Assembly (NCBI GenBank): GCA_026416845.1
Contig: JAOAEL010000006.1
Location: 390-64,389, forward strand
Length of the DNA: 64,000 bases
Reading direction: 5' to 3'
DNA from: Patescibacteria group bacterium
GTDB lineage: Bacteria > Patescibacteriota > Microgenomatia > UBA8517
Under the pieces are notes generated by a model. That model was not told the origin of the DNA and did not search any database. It saw nothing but the letters and a program-made list of their open reading frames with translations. The first letter of the stretch is position 1. Each line of letters starts with the position of its first letter. The position numbers were made by a program, and so were the translations under genes. Shown here one piece after another: positions 4,535 through 63,771 of the stretch.

Positions 4535-4905
4535 TTTTCTTATGCCTCTTTGTAGTTGACATTTCTTTTTCATATTAAAAATTGGTTTACAAAATTTTAA
4601 CAATTTTAGGTTCGTTTTTTTACTATTAATCTAAAACTTAACACTTAACCGGGTTTTAACAAAAATTTATCCGAAATATCAGGCCTGTTAAATTTATAAT
4701 CAAGAATAATTTACTTTCTTTATATCTTTAAATTAATTATTTCATACGCTAAAACAAAATTTTTAAATTGATAAGCATTTCTTGTGGTAAAACTCTATGT
4801 GTTTGACTCAATGCTTTTCTATCAGGAAATAAATCTTCAATTTTCTTTAATGTGGTTTTCTCTCTTAATTTTTTATATAATTCTAAAGTAAAATTTTGAA
4901 GTTTT

Positions 4906-5343
4906 ATGACAAATAAACCTATTATTCAAAAAATTGTCTTAGCCGGCATTGTTTTTAACAAACAAGGAAAAGTCCTTGTCCTCCAAAGAAACGAAAACGA
5001 AAACACCCATCCTGGAATGTGGGAACTTCCCAGTGGCAAAAGGGAATTTCTTGAATCTTCACACAACGCACTAACTAGAGAAATTAAAGAAGAAACAGGT
5101 TTAGACATTGAAGTCGTACAACCTTGTTCCGTTTTTGAATACAAAATTGAAAAGCCTAACGAAATCAGAGACTCAACTCAAATTAACTTTATTGTAACAT
5201 CAGAGGTCTCAGAAGTAAGATTAAGCGAGGAACATCAAAATTATGCTTGGATCTCCAAAAATGAAATAAATAGATACAAAATGTCTGTTGAAACAAAAGA
5301 AGCAATACAATTGGCTTTTGACCTATACTCAAAAATTTTATAA
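4906..5343 (+). CDS. NUDIX hydrolase
   Basis: Nudix box GKREFLESSHNALTREIKEETGL (Gx5Ex7REUxEExGU). Confidence 0.85.
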   Translation: MTNKPIIQKIVLAGIVFNKQGKVLVLQRNENENTHPGMWELPSGKREFLESSHNALTREIKEETGLDIEVVQPCSVFEYKIEKPNEIRDSTQINFIVTSEVSEVRLSEEHQNYAWISKNEINRYKMSVETKEAIQLAFDLYSKIL

Positions 5344-6368: not shown

Positions 6369-7583
6369 TTAATTTGCTATTAAGTGTCTCTTAACAACTT
6401 TTTCTATAATGGCAGCGTACTCATCTAAAACCGCTTTGTATCTTTTATTCTCATAAATGTCTATTGGTAATTTAATTGTTTGATCAAAAAACTGTTCAGC
6501 ACACGGAAAATCACCAATTTTATAACTGACTAAGCTCGTATATTCAGGATAAAGCAAACTCGGATCCTGAAATAATTTCAACATATTAAGTGGACAAGTA
6601 GAACTGGGCTTATCGGCATCCAATAAACCTTCCTTTACCAGCTCTTTGCAAATATCATCAGTTGATATATCAAAACAGCCACTGTTAAATTGAATTGTAT
6701 AAGCATACCAACTTGGATAAAAACCATCACATATGACAGGTATTTTTATGCCTGGTACATCTTTCAACAAAGAAGATAAATATTTAGCATTATTGTTTTT
6801 GGCTTTCAGCCATCGATCTAAATGATCAAATTGTTCATCAGCTATAGCGATGGCTAAAGGGTGTGCTCTTAACTTTAATCCAAAACCAGTAACTGCATAA
6901 GCATAATACGGCGAAGACTGGTTAATTTCCTGCTTGCATCTTTTATTGTAATGCCCAAAAAGAACAGCCCGATCATAGAGTTCTTTATTATTTGTAATAA
7001 TAATACCACCTTCACCTCCAGTAATAATTTTTTGTCCTTGCAAACTAAATGCTGCAATATCGCCAAAAGTACCAACATTTTTGTTTCCTATTTTTGCCCC
7101 GTGAGCATGCGAACAATCTTCAATTAACATTAGCTTATGTTTTTGACAGATACTCAATATTTCCTCCATGTCACAAGGAATACCCCACATATGAGTAACA
7201 ATTAAAGCTTTAGTTCTAGGAGTAATTAAAGGCTCAATTTTCTTAGGATCAATATTGCCATTTTCCTTTGAGTCACATAAAATGGGAATCGCTCCTGTCT
7301 GAAAAATCGGGGTAACAGTAGCATAAAAAGTATATGCTGGGCATATAACTTCATCTCCTTTTCTAAATCCACAAGCTACCATAGCGCTATGTAAAGCTGC
7401 AGTTCCGGAACTTGTAAGCAAAGCGTATTTACTCTTATGATAACAAGCAAACTTGTTTTCAAATTTCTCAAAAATTCCGGAACGATCATAGATTGAAATT
7501 TCTCCCTTTTCAAGCTCTTTAAGAACAGCTTTAATCGTTCTTTTGGTAATTTTAGGCCAAATATGTTTGTAACTTTTTTTCAT
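6369..7583 (-). CDS. DegT/DnrJ/EryC1/StrS family PLP-dependent sugar aminotransferase
   Basis: 404 aa; SSGTAALH, DEVICPAYTF, FSLQGQKIITGGEGG (PLP-Lys region) typical of the DegT family. Confidence 0.9.
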   Translation of the reverse strand: MKKSYKHIWPKITKRTIKAVLKELEKGEISIYDRSGIFEKFENKFACYHKSKYALLTSSGTAALHSAMVACGFRKGDEVICPAYTFYATVTPIFQTGAIPILCDSKENGNIDPKKIEPLITPRTKALIVTHMWGIPCDMEEILSICQKHKLMLIEDCSHAHGAKIGNKNVGTFGDIAAFSLQGQKIITGGEGGIIITNNKELYDRAVLFGHYNKRCKQEINQSSPYYAYAVTGFGLKLRAHPLAIAIADEQFDHLDRWLKAKNNNAKYLSSLLKDVPGIKIPVICDGFYPSWYAYTIQFNSGCFDISTDDICKELVKEGLLDADKPSSTCPLNMLKLFQDPSLLYPEYTSLVSYKIGDFPCAEQFFDQTIKLPIDIYENKRYKAVLDEYAAIIEKVVKRHLIAN

Positions 7584-7587
7584 AATT

Positions 7588-8574
7588 TCAGCTTGATGCT
7601 ACCTTATAACAACGATCAATAAACTCCATATTCTTTTTATGTTGAGACAAAATATCAGAAAAGCATCTCTTCCCTCTAATGCGTTTTATAAAAAAATCCA
7701 ACTGGTTGTCTATCATCTCTGAACTTTCATCAATACTTAAGTTAAGTAAAACATTGCCTTTTTTATCTCGAAGAACCAAAGACTTTTTATCACCATTGAT
7801 TTGCGCCTTTGATCCAACAAGTTCATATTCTTCTTTTTTCTCTGCTGTTGACCTAGATAATATTATTGATCCATGCAATCCGTTGCTATACTTAAAGGAA
7901 ATCAGGGAAGTGTCTTCGGCATATTCTTTAACTTTTGGAACTGCAAGATTAGATTTAGAAACAAAAATCTTTTCAGGTTCTCCAAACCACCATAACAACT
8001 GATCTATAATGTGATATCCCATATCAATTAAACATCCCCCACCAGCCTTTAAACTATTACCTCTCCAACCTTTATGCGGATCTTGAATTTTGAGTTTGTA
8101 GCATGCACTAAACAAATAAGGTTTACCTACCTGTCTAATAACTTTTCTGGCTTCTACGTATAAAGAACTATATCTTCTTTGACTACAAACAAAACAACAT
8201 TTCTCGATACCAGGCAAAGATAATATTTTCTTCATTTCTTCTATATTTCTGGCAAAAGGCTTTTCTTTGACAAAAGGAATTCCATTGGCAACAAGTATTT
8301 TGATAATCTCAAAATATTCATCGTGTGGAAGCGAAACAATAACAAAATCAATATCTGACAGTGGAATTTTTTCAAAATTTGTATATTTTTTTACATTTCT
8401 TGATAGTTCAGAATATTTATCACAAAAAAAATCTAAAGCCTGCTTCTTTACATCACACACCACAGAAATAATAACATCATTTCTTCTTAATAAAGAAGGT
8501 ATATGATCGTTAAAAGTTTGATTACCTAAACCAATAATAGCTGCCTTTAATAACTTGTCTTGTTTATTAATCAT
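7588..8574 (-). CDS. Gfo/Idh/MocA family NAD(P)-dependent oxidoreductase
   Basis: N-terminal Rossmann KAAIIGLGN…; EKP motif (FVKEKPFA); adjacent to and co-oriented with the sugar aminotransferase. Confidence 0.85.
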   Translation of the reverse strand: MINKQDKLLKAAIIGLGNQTFNDHIPSLLRRNDVIISVVCDVKKQALDFFCDKYSELSRNVKKYTNFEKIPLSDIDFVIVSLPHDEYFEIIKILVANGIPFVKEKPFARNIEEMKKILSLPGIEKCCFVCSQRRYSSLYVEARKVIRQVGKPYLFSACYKLKIQDPHKGWRGNSLKAGGGCLIDMGYHIIDQLLWWFGEPEKIFVSKSNLAVPKVKEYAEDTSLISFKYSNGLHGSIILSRSTAEKKEEYELVGSKAQINGDKKSLVLRDKKGNVLLNLSIDESSEMIDNQLDFFIKRIRGKRCFSDILSQHKKNMEFIDRCYKVASS

Positions 8575-18043: not shown

Positions 18044-18319
18044 TTAACTTTGATCCGAAGAATTTGTCTTGCTAAAACCTGAGCTTTCAACCACAGAAAT
18101 TTGCTGATTATCATATGATTGAGGCTGATCAACAACTTCCGCAGTCTCTTTTGGTTGAGAAATCAAGCCTTCATTAGAAAAAATATTGTTAGCAGAGAAA
18201 CTACCATCTTGGCTAACATCCACTGTAGGATCAGGAGCAACAGCAGGCTCATCAATCAAAGTAAAAGAAGACAATTGGGAAATTAAATTTGTGTTTTGCT
18301 GATTTTTATTGGGATCCAT
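18044..18319 (-). CDS. hypothetical low-complexity protein (Q/S/N-rich, 91 aa)
   Basis: ORF between trxA and trxB on same strand; compositionally biased. Confidence 0.35.
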   Translation of the reverse strand: MDPNKNQQNTNLISQLSSFTLIDEPAVAPDPTVDVSQDGSFSANNIFSNEGLISQPKETAEVVDQPQSYDNQQISVVESSGFSKTNSSDQS

Positions 18320-18826: not shown

Positions 18827-20449
18827 TTATATGGATAACCTTATATTATTTTTGATCAAATACCAATCAGCCCTTACCAGATATTCAAACACCAAAGCCA
18901 CAAATGGATCCTGGTAAAGAGGACTTCTGTCTTCTTCCATCATTTTCATAATTTCTCCCACATCTATCAATCCATAAAAGGCAAGAACAGAATTTTGCAT
19001 TACCCAAGAGATCAACCTTTTTTGATGTCTTGGAAAACCCAAAGCAAAATCTGTGCCTCCTTTTTTGGGAATAAACATCTCAGGAATAAATATATGGTCA
19101 AGACACCTAAAATAAGCCTGCTTACTATCCCAAGACGTTTCTTCTTTTAATCTCATTCCCAAAGACAACACTCTTAAGTCTAAATACGGAGAAATCAGAC
19201 GCCTACCAAAATTCCTGTAAATTTGATCTGTCAAAATTGATTCTCCTAAATGAATATCTGAATAAAAACAAGGGTAATCGCCACGACTGTTAAATCTGTC
19301 TCTGCTCAACAAAAGCTCAACCCCTTTTTTGCTCCACAATAATTTGTGCTTGTCTTTCTTCAACCACCTGACATTGTCAAAATAACTCATCTGACGACAA
19401 TACTTGCCTGCCCAGAAAAACCCTTTGATAGAGTAAAGTTCATCACCGTGTTGACCGGTAAAAAGCAAATTGGGCGCATATTTTTCTAAAAACCTGATAT
19501 ATCCTCCAAAATAATCAGCATGAAGTTGCAAAAGACTGTCATCTTCCCAAAGTTCAAAATAATCCTTGGCATAACCAGCATCCGGAACCAACTCAACCGT
19601 TCTTAATTTTAAGGAATGCTTGCTTACAAATTTTTGGATAATTTCCAAACTTTCCGTGCCATAACCCTGTGGAAAATGAAAGGAATAACAATAAAAATTA
19701 TCAGGGCCAATAAGCTTGGATAAAATGTAAGCAACTATCGTACAATCAAAACCGCTTGAAACTTCACAACCAATTTCAACACCTCTTGGTATCTTCTCCA
19801 ACCGACGAGCTACAGAATCTGTTAGCACATCTTCAAGAGCTTTTGCAAATTCTTTATCACTTGCCAATTCTTCTTTGGAAACACTGTCAAAAAATTTGTC
19901 TATATCGATACAAGAACTTATTTTGCAAGAAACAGAACCCTCAAAATTAAATTCCGCAACACAACCGGGTGAAACCAATTTTACAGACTCCAAAAGAGTT
20001 TTATCGGTAACATGAAAAGCATTTGTAGCATAAGTAAGTAGTCCATCCAAATCTGCCACTAAGGGTCCGAATTTAGAAACAACATCTTTAATCAGGCCAA
20101 AGTCAGAAGTGAAAAAAACCTTGCCGCGGAATATGCTAAAATAACAAGGTAAGCTTGCCGTATTGTCCACCCCAACTCTTAGAATCTTTTTTCTTTTATC
20201 CCAAACAAATAAGAGGTATTCACAATCACTATTGGCTATTCGACTAAATCCATATTCTTGCAATTCACTAGTTAAATTGTTTTCATAAATTCTAAGATAG
20301 GAATCATAACTCGAAAAATAGCCCCACACAGTCAGTTCTTTGTTGTTAACAAAAACACGCGTTGGCAAAACAGCACTTTTAAGCTCTTTATAACAATCTT
20401 CAAAAGAGCTATTTTCAGGAGAAAAAGTAAAATTAAAATTGGTGTTCAT
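18827..20449 (-). CDS. asparagine synthetase (AsnB)-like ATP-pyrophosphatase lacking N-terminal glutaminase Cys; lasso-peptide-cyclase-like
   Basis: PP-loop-like EIGCEVSSGFDCTIVAYIL (cf. AsnB SGGLDSS); ~540 aa; no Cys2; start set at MNTNFNF so that its ATG lies 1 nt after the stop of the upstream PqqD-like gene. Confidence 0.65.
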   Translation of the reverse strand: MNTNFNFTFSPENSSFEDCYKELKSAVLPTRVFVNNKELTVWGYFSSYDSYLRIYENNLTSELQEYGFSRIANSDCEYLLFVWDKRKKILRVGVDNTASLPCYFSIFRGKVFFTSDFGLIKDVVSKFGPLVADLDGLLTYATNAFHVTDKTLLESVKLVSPGCVAEFNFEGSVSCKISSCIDIDKFFDSVSKEELASDKEFAKALEDVLTDSVARRLEKIPRGVEIGCEVSSGFDCTIVAYILSKLIGPDNFYCYSFHFPQGYGTESLEIIQKFVSKHSLKLRTVELVPDAGYAKDYFELWEDDSLLQLHADYFGGYIRFLEKYAPNLLFTGQHGDELYSIKGFFWAGKYCRQMSYFDNVRWLKKDKHKLLWSKKGVELLLSRDRFNSRGDYPCFYSDIHLGESILTDQIYRNFGRRLISPYLDLRVLSLGMRLKEETSWDSKQAYFRCLDHIFIPEMFIPKKGGTDFALGFPRHQKRLISWVMQNSVLAFYGLIDVGEIMKMMEEDRSPLYQDPFVALVFEYLVRADWYLIKNNIRLSI

Positions 20450-20450
20450 A

Positions 20451-20720
20451 TCATGCCTTTTTAATAACCACTCTCCTCTCAACCAAATCATCCATGGCTT
20501 TTTCAAGATAAGAACAATCCTCAGGGAAAAAACTGATCCATTCTTCTAAATCTTCTTTTGTGGCAAATCCGCGAAGATCTAGTGCGCGCAGGATATAGTA
20601 AAGCGGAGGTAACACCTCAAAAATCTTGTCATTTTTCCAGTCAAAAGCTATTGTTTTGTAACCTTTATCTTTATCAGAATCCAAAAAAATTATTGAATCG
20701 CGGTTTAATTTATAAATCAT
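20451..20720 (-). CDS. PqqD-like RiPP recognition element (RRE) protein
   Basis: 89 aa; N-terminal beta-strand region (KLNRDSIIFLDSD…YKTIAFDWKNDKIFEV) followed by helices ILRALDLRGFATKEDLEEWIS and EKAMDDLVERRVVIK, matching the PqqD fold pattern. Confidence 0.5.
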   Translation of the reverse strand: MIYKLNRDSIIFLDSDKDKGYKTIAFDWKNDKIFEVLPPLYYILRALDLRGFATKEDLEEWISFFPEDCSYLEKAMDDLVERRVVIKKA

Positions 20721-21138
20721 ACTTTCGATTTTTTAAACTTCGAGCAAGTAAAAAAGACACCCCCAAAAAGCACGGGCAGACAAAAAAATAGCAAGGCAAG
20801 CACAAATCAGCAATAAAAAAGCAACTGATGGACTGTTCCCTTATTTACTCTCTTCCCCATTTATGCACTCCAGGCTTTCTTTCTCCGCACTTTTTTACGT
20901 ATACAATTACATTTGAGCACAATTCCTTAAAACCTACCTTCTCAAGACTTAATTCTTCTTGAGAAATTGGCCTTCGCTCGTTAAGGATTGATCTCAAAGT
21001 CTCTAATCTACTAAAAGCTATCCTTAATCACCCCCCTTTATTCGGCATGTCTAACAAGAGTTTATTGTAATACATACTTAAATTGAAAGAGTAAAATTAG
21101 CTTTTCAGGTAAACCAATAATAAAATTCTTTGAATTAA

Positions 21139-22674
21139 CTAGCCTAAATACAAGTTCGTATACTTTTCCTGCAAATAATCTAGAAGGTAGTTAGGATTAA
21201 GATCTTCACCAGTAATTCTCTTGCACAACTCACTTGGCCAATACAAGCTACCGTGCTGGTGAATATTTGAGCGCAACCACGAAAGTATTGCTCCAAATTC
21301 CCCTTTTGAGACTTTTTCAGCAAAATTAATTTCTTTTCTCATCGCATTTGCAAACTGAGCCGCGTAAAGGTTGCCTAGAGTATAAGTTGGAAAGTAACCA
21401 ATACTTCCATAGCTCCAGTGAACATCCTGCAAAACCCCCTCTCGATCAGTTTCTGGAACAACTCCCAGATAATCTCGCATTTTCTCGCGCCAAATTCCTG
21501 GCAAATCCTCTGGTTTGATCTTTTTGTTAATTAACGCTTCTTCTATCTCAAACCTGAGAGCAATATGCAAATTATATGTAACTTCATCTGCTTCCACACG
21601 AATTAGACTTGGCTTTACAATATTAAACAACAAGTGCAATTCTTCTTTGTCCGCTTTGCCAACTTGGTCATTAAACAAAGTATGAAGTATCGGCTCAATA
21701 AAAGAGATAAATTCATAGCTTCTCCCAATTTGGTTTTCCCAAAATCTTGACTGACTTTCATGAATGCCAAGCGACACCCCGCCATCAATGGGAGTGTATT
21801 CATAGTCTCGTAATACTCCTTGTTCATACAAAGCATGTCCCACCTCGTGAATAGCGCTTGCCAAAGAATCGCGAAAGTCATTTACTTTGTATCTTGTTGT
21901 AATCCTGACATCGTCTCTGCCTAGCGTTTCTGTGAAAGGATGTGCTGAAACATCAAGTCTGCCCGCGGTAAAATCGTAACCTAATTTGCGCGCCACAAAA
22001 AGCGCGATTTGTCTTTGGTGCTCTACTGGATAATTTGCATTTTCCGAAAAATACTTTTGAGACAAGGCAACAATTTCATTGTACTTTTTTGAACCTTGAA
22101 CACTTTTAAGCAAATCTTTAAGTTTTGATCGCAACTCATCAAATATTGCTTTTACCTGAGAAAAAGTCAAACCCGGCTCGTAAAGGTCCAAAAGCGCATC
22201 GTATGGATTGCCTTTGTAGCCCAAATGATCAGCAATTAACTGGCAAATATTGACAACTTTTTTAAGATGCGGCAAAAAATCGGCAAAAGAATCTTCTCGC
22301 TTTGCTTTTTGCCAAGCCATAAAGGCTTGAGAAGTAGTTTTGCTAAACTCAACAACCAAACTTTGCGGAACTTTGAAATAATATTTCCCCTGCCAGTTAA
22401 GATTCCTTATTATTGCTTTCTCGGTTTCAGTTAAATCAGATTCGTTTTCAACTTCCTCCAGCAAATTCCTGAGTTTTTTTGATAACCATTTTTCTGATAT
22501 CAACTGAGTAACATAAGCGCTTTGCGCCGCACGACCATCCGCCGCCGCTTCTGGCAAACTGACATTCATGTCATATCCCAAAACAGCCGAAATCTTGCCA
22601 AGCAAATAAATCTCTTTGTACAATGACAAAAGCTCCTGAATCTTTTTATTTTTAGAAACCATAAATTTTAACAA
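21139..22674 (-). CDS. carboxypeptidase Taq (M32 family metallocarboxypeptidase)
   Basis: HEVGHALYEQG (M32 HExxH), 511 aa, DxRxTxR and GxxQDxHW-like (LQDVHWS) motifs. Confidence 0.9.
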   Translation of the reverse strand: MLKFMVSKNKKIQELLSLYKEIYLLGKISAVLGYDMNVSLPEAAADGRAAQSAYVTQLISEKWLSKKLRNLLEEVENESDLTETEKAIIRNLNWQGKYYFKVPQSLVVEFSKTTSQAFMAWQKAKREDSFADFLPHLKKVVNICQLIADHLGYKGNPYDALLDLYEPGLTFSQVKAIFDELRSKLKDLLKSVQGSKKYNEIVALSQKYFSENANYPVEHQRQIALFVARKLGYDFTAGRLDVSAHPFTETLGRDDVRITTRYKVNDFRDSLASAIHEVGHALYEQGVLRDYEYTPIDGGVSLGIHESQSRFWENQIGRSYEFISFIEPILHTLFNDQVGKADKEELHLLFNIVKPSLIRVEADEVTYNLHIALRFEIEEALINKKIKPEDLPGIWREKMRDYLGVVPETDREGVLQDVHWSYGSIGYFPTYTLGNLYAAQFANAMRKEINFAEKVSKGEFGAILSWLRSNIHQHGSLYWPSELCKRITGEDLNPNYLLDYLQEKYTNLYLG

Positions 22675-47706: not shown

Positions 47707-48537
47707 ATGACAGATTACGATCCTTACATTTGGTCAATTAGTAAAGAAAATACTAACAAAGAATATGTGCCAAATATCAAAAGAGCGGGCTTACTGAATA
47801 AAAACCGGGAATTTGCCGATTTCTCTGAGCTGTGGAACCCTATCCAAGAAAAAATTCCAGAAACATTCTTAAGAACAATAGCTGTTATAAATTTCGCAAG
47901 AGCAGAGGATCCCGGAGGACAAATTTTCGCCAGAAAACTTTATGGTGCACCTATAATTGGCAAGCACGAAGAAACTTCCTTTGTCGATGAAAAAACCCAA
48001 ATGAGACAAAGCTTAATATACATGAATGTTGACAAAAGTGTAAAAATTACAAAAGAAGAGTTTAGAGCCGTTCTTGTCCACGAAATAGGGCACGCCGTTT
48101 TCAGAAATTTAAAAGAAGACGAGCTAGAAAGGTGGTCTGCTATCGACACAGTTGAAAAAACTAGTGTCTCCGAATACGTTTCTGATAGAAGGAAATCCGG
48201 CAAACAACAAGATACAGTCAAAGACGATTTTTGCGAAAGTTTCGCCCTTTTTGTAGAAATTCCTGGATTATTAAAAATAATTGCGCCACAAAGATATGCA
48301 TACATGGAAAAATTATTTAGCAATCATGACGAACCTTTATTGATAGCAAAAAAAAGAGAAAACAGAGAAAGAGAAGTGGAAAAATACCAAACTGAAATGA
48401 GAAATCTGGGTTGGGATGAAGAAAAAATTCGTGCCGGTTATCAAGATGGTAAAAGATATCCATTAAACTGGATACCTCAATACATCCAAAAATACACTAA
48501 CACTACAAATACACCTGAAAGAGAACAAACAGAGTAA
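47707..48537 (+). CDS. putative zinc metallopeptidase-like protein (HExxH)
   Basis: AVLVHEIGHAVF motif; otherwise uncharacterised. Confidence 0.5.
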   Translation: MTDYDPYIWSISKENTNKEYVPNIKRAGLLNKNREFADFSELWNPIQEKIPETFLRTIAVINFARAEDPGGQIFARKLYGAPIIGKHEETSFVDEKTQMRQSLIYMNVDKSVKITKEEFRAVLVHEIGHAVFRNLKEDELERWSAIDTVEKTSVSEYVSDRRKSGKQQDTVKDDFCESFALFVEIPGLLKIIAPQRYAYMEKLFSNHDEPLLIAKKRENREREVEKYQTEMRNLGWDEEKIRAGYQDGKRYPLNWIPQYIQKYTNTTNTPEREQTE

Positions 48538-63441: not shown

Positions 63442-63771
63442 ATGAAATCTAATTACTTGTCTTTGCGAAGAGAAGATCTTGTTCAAATGGAAAATGCCTT
63501 AACACCAAACTTTGCAGGAAAAAGTTTGGGAGATGTAATATCAGCAGCCATACCATATGTATTCAGTTTTGCGGGATTTGCTCTTTTAATTTACATTATC
63601 TTTTCTGGATATAAATTTTTGACATCGCAAGGCGATTCAAAAAAGGTAGAAATCGCAAAAGAAAACCTAACAACAGCTATAATTGGGTTCATAATAATAT
63701 TTACATCATACTTTATAGTCCAAATAATTGGAAGAATACTTGGTATAAATCAAATACAAGAAATGTTTTGA
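63442..63771 (+). CDS. T4SS-pilin-like small membrane protein, paralog 2
   Basis: 109 aa; same architecture, loop YKFLTSQGDSKKVEIAKENL. Confidence 0.6.
   Translation: MKSNYLSLRREDLVQMENALTPNFAGKSLGDVISAAIPYVFSFAGFALLIYIIFSGYKFLTSQGDSKKVEIAKENLTTAIIGFIIIFTSYFIVQIIGRILGINQIQEMF

Follow-up and report, generated by a model that had tools for sequence, protein, structure and literature searches.

A 64,000-nucleotide stretch of a Patescibacteria genome (GenBank contig JAOAEL010000006.1; hereafter the window) carries three genes on its minus strand, for a small precursor peptide, for a predicted stand-alone RRE (recognition element for peptides that are ribosomally synthesized and then modified post-translationally, RiPPs) and for an enzyme of the AsnB fold. 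We tentatively propose that they form a self-contained RiPP cassette, which may plausibly be a lasso-like macrolactam pathway that works without a leader peptidase and closes its ring between a lysine and an acidic side chain. The original prediction, made from the DNA letters, had described the second and third genes as a translationally coupled pair of a PqqD-like RRE and a lasso-cyclase-like AsnB homologue.

The two genes are coupled as predicted, the open reading frame (ORF) of 89 residues ending 1 nt before the ATG of a homologue of about 540 residues. On the minus strand, the stop codon TGA of the RRE gene occupies 20453-20451 and is followed by the single base 20450 and the enzyme ATG at 20449-20447. 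An alternative enzyme start, TTG at 20506, would give a protein of 559 residues; this reading is unlikely and the ATG start (540 residues) was preferred, because Met1 is invariant in 22 aligned homologues. The original prediction had also called for a search of sister genomes for the pair and for a small ORF upstream of it, and both were found. The pair was present in 27 of 36 independent loci, which is not chance, and wherever both genes were called they abutted or overlapped by 4-11 nt.

The gap upstream of the RRE gene (20721-21138, 418 bp), in which possible precursor ORFs had been suspected, contains a conserved and selected small ORF (Table 1) with the stop codon TAA at 20847-20845. Forty-eight loci were fetched and the stop-to-stop frames upstream of each enzyme gene were read, which yielded 30 distinct precursors. 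Wherever the upstream sequence could be read, except in L019 and L035, the precursor ORF adjoined the enzyme gene, in most cases with the RRE gene between them. The precursors consist of a leader motif (E-hydrophobic-hydrophobic-G-[K/L/N]), a variable linker and a core, x-K-x-G-G-x-[D/E], that is followed by 6-9 residues. The leader motif was kept across all 30, including those whose enzymes belong to subfamilies with only 24-37% identity to that of the window. A Shine-Dalgarno (SD) sequence of the AGGAGGTGA type stood 5-9 nt before an ATG or GTG in nearly every precursor gene, and the start codon was canonical in 28 of the 29 loci analysed.

The precursors fell into groups that followed the similarity of their enzymes to the window enzyme. 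Group A (enzymes 55-67% identical) had the pattern ...LxLEQ(V/I)GLKELCS-xxxxxx-(A/T/V)K(R/K)GGREPG(V/I)HxWG(R/G), and group B (28-37%) the pattern ...VEVLGKxxxxxx-(G/A/L/Q)K(N/T/H)G(G/A)xD-x7-8. Group C (24-26%) included precursors such as ...AETIGNFAEIYERKNGAPADSAMPIRN and ...IELLGGISERFDKYGPLGEPSFRRPA. The family core consensus was x-K-(R/K)-G-G-R-E-P-G-V-H-x-W-G-R. In a codon analysis of nine group-A genes, the core residues K, G, G, R, E, G, H, W and G showed zero non-synonymous pair differences against 8-28 synonymous ones (none for W, which has a single codon), and the residues G, L, E and S of the leader motif showed 0 against 8-29. The five or six residues that precede the group-A core were hypervariable. 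Judged from this codon pattern, the precursor is a translated gene under strong purifying selection, with a leader motif, a linker and a core.

A single acidic residue was invariant in the 30 precursors, and in 29 of them it lay 6-9 residues from the C-terminus. A Lys stood exactly five residues before it in 27 of the 30 and six residues before it in 2 more, and this spacing held across enzymes down to about 24% identity. The residue preceding the Lys varied (A, T, V, G, L, Q, M, R or D), as did the C-terminal residue (R, G, S, Q, H, N, A, K or I). Bulky or basic residues (K, R, W, Y, H) occurred 4-6 positions after the acid. The 30 leaders contained neither YxxP nor Thr(-2); a hydrophobic residue (M/V/I/L/F) was common at -2.

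The 89-residue protein was assigned from its predicted structure. Searches of Pfam, NCBIfam and PDB (phmmer and hmmsearch) gave nothing or noise, and PqqD (PF05402) matched neither the window protein at E<=1 nor any of six homologues at E<=10. The structure prediction that had been called for returned an RRE fold: the model (predicted local distance difference test, pLDDT, 87.7) has an N-terminal β-sheet, then three helices and a last strand. In a Foldseek search of PDB, the top match was the lasso B1 protein TbiB1 in a structure with its leader bound (probability 1.0, TM 0.61), and PbtF-RRE and TfuB1 came next. A second structural comparison gave TigE (8.6), the 'RiPP recognition protein' TglI (8.4), TbiB1 (8.3), NisB (8.3), TbtB (8.2), MibB (8.2), TfuB1 (7.6), McbB (7.1), MccB (6.9), LynD (6.7) and PqqD (6.5). 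These results support the identification of the protein as an RRE, an identity that rests on the predicted fold. The description as a PqqD-like RRE was borne out as to fold, with the lasso B1 proteins TbiB1 and TfuB1 among the best matches, and found no counterpart in PF05402 or another sequence model.

The enzyme keeps a PP-loop and lacks the glutaminase Cys, as the original prediction had stated. The PP-loop variant SSGFD aligned with SGGLDS of human ASNS, and its G-D-E residues are presumably the counterpart of GEGSDE in AsnB. Its N-terminus reads MNTNF, so that Cys2 is absent; no aligned family member has Cys at position 2, and the catalytic Cys is accordingly missing from the N-terminal domain, which resembles that of N-terminal nucleophile hydrolases. 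In the profile searches that had been suggested for the large protein, Pfam Asn_synthase was passed narrowly (24.8 bits vs cut-off 21, residues 205-376). The lasso-cyclase model NF033535 of NCBIfam gave 14.5 bits vs cut-off 525, and NF033561 gave no match. The asparagine synthetase model TIGR01536 gave 52 bits vs cut-off 267, with an alignment that begins only at profile position 110; thus neither of the marks of glutamine-dependent AsnB, a full-length match above this cut-off and an N-terminal Cys, was found. PDB sequence searches with the enzyme or its profile returned marginal matches to the ASNS PP-loop only.

An AlphaFold2 model of the enzyme was confident (pLDDT 88.9, predicted TM-score 0.90) and showed a full two-domain enzyme. 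Its best solved neighbours matched over the whole length and were all of the AsnB fold: TsnB9 (1e-17), beta-lactam synthetase, E. coli AsnB, human ASNS and carbapenam synthetase. No lasso cyclase was among these solved-structure matches. At E<=1e-30, a search of 1.84 billion representatives with the enzyme profile found 72 cluster representatives; those that are complete have 523-558 residues and aligned end to end. Ordinary glutamine-dependent asparagine synthetases (600-650 residues) entered this search at about 1e-17 and over residues 50-340 only. The original prediction had named grouping with housekeeping AsnB as the finding that would speak against it; the profile separates the family from true AsnB instead. 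The enzyme is a member of a discrete, divergent AsnB-fold family (about 530-545 residues), far from housekeeping AsnB.

Table 1. Features of the cassette in the window (positions are those of the window).
Feature	Position	Strand	Basis or remark
Precursor peptide gene, 58 codons from ATA (21021-21019), product (I/M)AFSRLETLRSILNERRPISQEELSLEKVGFKELCSNVIVYVKKCGERKPGVHKWGRE	20845..21021	minus	Homologous ORFs, codon analysis
Shine-Dalgarno-like AAGGGGGGTGA, 6 nt 5' of the precursor ATA	21028..21038	minus	Sequence; same SD-start spacing in homologous loci
Leader recognition-motif region LEKVGFKEL	20926..20952	minus	Window version of E-hydrophobic-hydrophobic-G-[K/L/N]
Predicted core peptide VKKCGERKPGVHKWGRE	20848..20898	minus	Precursor alignment
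89-residue RRE ORF (stand-alone, B1-like)	20451..20720	minus	Translationally coupled to the enzyme gene
540-residue AsnB-fold enzyme, putative macrolactam synthetase/cyclase, predicted ATP-dependent and carboxylate-adenylating	18827..20449	minus	Profiles, alignment, model
PP-loop variant SSGFD, residues 231-235	19745..19759	minus	Invariant in 22 aligned family members, including at 24% identity
G-D-E, residues 335-337, of the motif G(Q/E)xGDExY	19439..19447	minus	Invariant in the family alignment

No conserved leader peptidase gene was found near these genes. ORFs of at least 70 residues from 36 non-redundant loci were clustered, and the only families common to the loci were the enzyme (36) and the RRE (27), most of the remaining loci being truncated contigs. 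Neither a B2 protein nor any other third conserved gene family was found within about 5-8 kb of the enzyme in the 36 loci, and no ATP-grasp gene was conserved nearby. In the window, Transglut_core3 (B2) matched none of the 20 small or medium ORFs scanned. The statement that no transglutaminase-like B2 lies adjacent to the pair was borne out. Complete cassettes also occur in tandem pairs without a protease (L014, 5521-8868; L034, 4491-8898; L021, 677-5161), and therefore the unit of inheritance is the precursor, the RRE and the enzyme. The tandem cassettes differ in subtype and each has a precursor type of its own; this suggests that they arose by duplication and diversified as enzyme and substrate co-evolved.

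AsnB, beta-lactam synthetase and lasso cyclases adenylate a carboxylate and then pass it to an amine. Since the enzyme has no glutaminase nucleophile, an intramolecular amine would be its natural partner, and the candidates are the ε-amine of the invariant Lys and the α-amine of core residue 1 (x1). On our proposal, the RRE would bind the motif E-hydrophobic-hydrophobic-G-K/L in the precursor of about 50 residues, as its fold and the conservation of the motif suggest, and would pass the leader-attached peptide to the enzyme of the coupled gene. The site formed by the PP-loop SSGFD and GDE would then adenylate the side-chain carboxylate of the invariant Asp or Glu, as expected from the chemistry of the family. 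The ε-amine of the Lys five residues upstream may capture the acyl-adenylate to give an isopeptide ring from side chain to side chain. Lasso rings of seven residues have 22-23 atoms and those of eight residues 25-26; the proposed ring, counted in atoms, would lie between them at 23-24. The short tail, with its bulky residues at +4 to +6, might, more speculatively, thread or pack against the ring.

A coupling of RRE and cyclase implies a leader-bearing substrate, as only this gives sense to keeping the RRE, and B2 could be missing while the RRE is kept because the proposed ring closure needs no proteolysis. We favour the Lys ε-amine because the RRE and the cyclase are coupled, the Lys is more conserved than residue 1, the leaders have no YxxP or Thr(-2), and no B2 was found. 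If the Lys reading is right, the cassette would represent a new class. It is possible, if uncertain, that such a class exists in the full form considered here: a minimal three-gene system in which an AsnB-type enzyme, guided by a stand-alone RRE, makes a Lys-ε–Asp/Glu isopeptide on the intact precursor, with a lasso-sized ring possibly threaded by the C-terminal tail and no leader proteolysis, duplicated and diversified in Patescibacteria.

Several points weigh against this proposal. Beyond gene content and fold, we infer each of its steps. To our knowledge, the known AsnB-type RiPP cyclases (lasso C proteins) use the α-amine of residue 1 and not Lys. Some loci have a precursor and an enzyme without an RRE (L007/L040 and the more distant L047), and some cassettes have a peptidase gene of one family or another nearby: M16 in L008 and L035, S41 in L044 and M32 in the window. 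Lariocidin (SKKSKPGDGKFGRGVKRG), a genuine lasso peptide, has an x1-K2 start and a cationic core, and its Lys2 is not the primary ring nucleophile (PMC12427821, PMC11451635). Because lariocidin shares the x1-K2 cationic core, conservation of the Lys could reflect target binding rather than ring closure.

The window copy itself is a further point against the proposal. It is the sole locus among the 29 analysed without a canonical start at the site defined by the SD: ATA (21021-21019) stands where homologues have ATG or GTG, and the first canonical start, TTG at 20997, lies eight codons further in and has no SD. In its core, Cys replaces the first Gly, the Glu stands two residues earlier relative to the conserved Pro, a Lys occupies the usual Glu position, and there is an extra C-terminal Glu. 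The spacing from Lys to Glu is 3-4 vs 5 and the tail has 11 residues vs 6-9, so that the K-x4-E rule is broken. The window enzyme and RRE appear intact. The window precursor may have co-evolved to form a different ring, may be decaying or expressed only weakly, or may result from an assembly or sequencing error; use of a rare start codon is also possible.

A true threaded lasso peptide, whose leader is cut by an unlinked or general protease and whose x1 α-amine is joined to Asp/Glu7 (ring of seven residues, then a loop and tail of 7-8), is the main rival reading and somewhat less probable than our proposal. Lasso B1 proteins, TbiB1 and TfuB1, are among the structures that match the RRE best, and the enzyme is AsnB-like with an inactive N-terminal domain, like lasso cyclases. 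The core size (D/E at 7, 14-16 residues in total, bulky residues near the end) fits small class II lasso peptides, and some cassettes have an M16 or S41 peptidase gene next to them. The cationic cores with their x1-K2 start are similar to those of the lariocidin/triculamin family (PMC12427821, PMC12070363), the triculamin pathway lacks B proteins (PMC12070363; bioRxiv 10.64898/2026.07.03.736388), and a hydrophobic residue at -2 is matched by a known leader with a penultimate Ile (PMC10368454). However, the 36 loci share no B2 gene in cis and the window ORFs scanned include none, the leaders lack YxxP and Thr(-2), the enzyme scores far below the lasso-cyclase cut-off, and residue 1 would be unusually variable. 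Moreover, the coupled RRE would have no obvious role if an unrelated protease removed the leader first.

An activation of a carboxylate on the peptide for another purpose is improbable. Examples would be an amide made with free ammonia or some other amine, an activated C-terminal carboxylate, or a lactam that involves a different amine. The nearest solved structures do use diverse nucleophiles (TsnB9 is a hydroxyamidotransferase, beside beta-lactam synthetase and carbapenam synthetase), and the displaced Glu and extra C-terminal Glu of the window precursor would suit such chemistry. However, amidation of Asp to Asn or of Glu to Gln would be pointless in a genetically encoded peptide, the C-termini are variable while the internal acid is invariant, and the fixed spacing of Lys and acid together with the tail length suggests an intramolecular ring. 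Finally, an ordinary locus, with a divergent housekeeping asparagine synthetase or amidotransferase beside a small winged-helix regulator and a non-coding or regulatory leader upstream, is largely refuted and very improbable: source annotations label the enzyme an asparagine synthase, and weak matches to Pfam families of the winged helix-turn-helix type occur in the C-terminal half of some small-protein homologues, but the TIGR01536 score is low, Cys2 is missing, true AsnB proteins match the family profile only weakly and in part, and the small ORF has its own SD and is under strong purifying selection.

Canonical lasso clusters (precursor A, B1 RRE, B2 transglutaminase-like peptidase and C cyclase) share with the cassette a small precursor, a stand-alone RRE whose closest folds are RRE domains including TbiB1 and TfuB1, an AsnB-fold enzyme without the glutaminase Cys, and an acid in core position 7, after which comes a short tail that carries bulky residues. 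Unlike them, the cassette has no cis-conserved B2, no YxxP or Thr(-2) and no transporter gene; its core residue 1 is variable and its Lys2 invariant, whereas a lasso core starts with G/A/S/C; its enzyme lies far below the cut-off of the lasso-cyclase profile; and its hosts are Patescibacteria. Set against the definition of a lasso cluster, a leader-binding-type RRE was thus found (as judged from the model), no B2 was found within about 5-8 kb in the 36 loci, and the leader and core signature was absent though D/E at position 7 is conserved. Triculamin-type clusters (follower, N-truncated cyclase, no B1 or B2) likewise have no dedicated leader peptidase and a cationic Lys-rich core (PMC12070363). 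The cassette differs from them in having an N-terminal leader rather than a C-terminal follower, an RRE and a full two-domain enzyme, and in having no GNAT or transporter gene.

In class V lasso peptides (lariocidin B, gelatinamin A), the core also begins x-K and is rich in Gly and basic residues, and the ε-amine of Lys2 forms an isopeptide, as is proposed for the cassette. However, that bond runs to the C-terminus, and a clostripain-like transpeptidase makes it once a canonical B1/B2/C lasso step is complete; the cassette has no such peptidase. Graspetides (microviridin-type omega-amides and esters) share with our proposal a side-chain macrolactam of Lys and Asp/Glu made on a leader-bearing precursor without prior proteolysis; they are made by ATP-grasp ligases via acyl-phosphates, whereas the cassette enzyme has the adenylating AsnB/PP-loop fold and a separate RRE. 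Beta-lactam synthetase, carbapenam synthetase (CarA) and TsnB9 are the best neighbours among solved structures. They activate a carboxylate by adenylation and join it to a nitrogen nucleophile, and in beta-lactam synthetase and CarA this coupling is intramolecular. Their substrates are small molecules, and they have no RRE or ribosomal precursor as partner.

The genomes of Patescibacteria (Candidate Phyla Radiation, CPR) are very small, and few natural products are expected from them. A RiPP cassette that is widespread, diversifying and in places tandemly duplicated would be among the few dedicated peptide-modification systems known in these bacteria, and it is a candidate for mediating how they interact with hosts or competitors. 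Our literature searches turned up neither lasso-like or AsnB-type RiPPs from CPR/Patescibacteria nor an RRE and AsnB system without a protease, and a structure-based RRE survey does not mention Patescibacteria. The separation of a lasso RRE and cyclase from B2 bears directly on a question that arose from the triculamin work, namely why canonical lasso pathways need an RRE-peptidase complex (bioRxiv 10.64898/2026.07.03.736388). If Lys closes the ring, this would be new enzymology for the AsnB fold and a very compact, protease-independent route to lasso-sized rings in genetically encoded peptides. Genome mining that requires B2 or Thr(-2) would miss the cassette; antiSMASH is reported to miss leaders without Thr(-2) (PMC12070363).

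The window neighbours were identified with Pfam. The upstream neighbour is an M32 carboxypeptidase (560 bits), and on the downstream side are a thioredoxin (trxA), a 91-residue ORF, a thioredoxin-reductase-like flavoprotein (trxB) and a DsbA-like protein (dsbA). The suggestion that the M32 enzyme might be a borrowed peptidase of the system, or that the trxA/trxB/dsbA genes belong to it, was rejected, as these neighbours are absent from the other loci; trxA also has its own promoter-like site. The 91-residue ORF (18044-18319, minus strand) is rich in Q, N and S and has no Pfam match.

Other loci showed further arrangements. A YcaO cyclodehydratase and a nitroreductase-type dehydrogenase adjoin the cassette in L008 (1-2722, with M16 as well) and L038 (7112-9237), and in L035 an M16 peptidase lies immediately downstream (6594-8078). 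They might make up a second RiPP pathway, add further tailoring, or supply these cassettes with a leader peptidase. Directly downstream of a group-C cassette (L044, 5309-6493) stands an S41 peptidase of the C-terminal-processing type that has a PDZ domain. In L035, the RRE gene is split by a frameshift (4668-4948) and no upstream precursor ORF was found, so that the cassette seems to be decaying; in L019 only the enzyme is present. On the more distant branch (L047, 1815-4356; P0118), a very basic precursor of 44 residues (…MKAAGRDDQGYRHN) comes directly before the enzyme and a DsbA-like gene directly after it; the likeness to trxA/trxB/dsbA in the window is possibly a coincidence.

An attenuator or terminator between the precursor and RRE genes was considered and rejected: there was no terminator-like site on the coding strand, and the fold was no better than that of shuffles (z = +1.08). 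An Rfam scan of the intergenic regions returned nothing. Closely related group-A loci share a conserved stretch of DNA, about 200 nt, upstream of the precursor (L010, 5237-5429; L013, 5354-5459; L020, 5-182; L024, 467-596); this region, which had no Rfam match in L010, may be a promoter or regulatory region. A phage origin was rejected, as no relatives were found among viral contigs. The G+C content of all loci was 31-50%. The labels 'Pseudomonadales' and 'Gammaproteobacteria' on some of them (L011, L013-L016, L018) are doubtful because of their 37-44% G+C and CPR-like gene content.

Two ORFs elsewhere in the window, both on the plus strand, gave matches of their own. One of 276 residues (47707-48537) had a sub-threshold match to the ATLF (anthrax lethal factor) metalloprotease domain (24.3 bits vs cut-off 27.4), and one of 109 residues (63442-63771) matched a type IV secretion pilin (37 bits).

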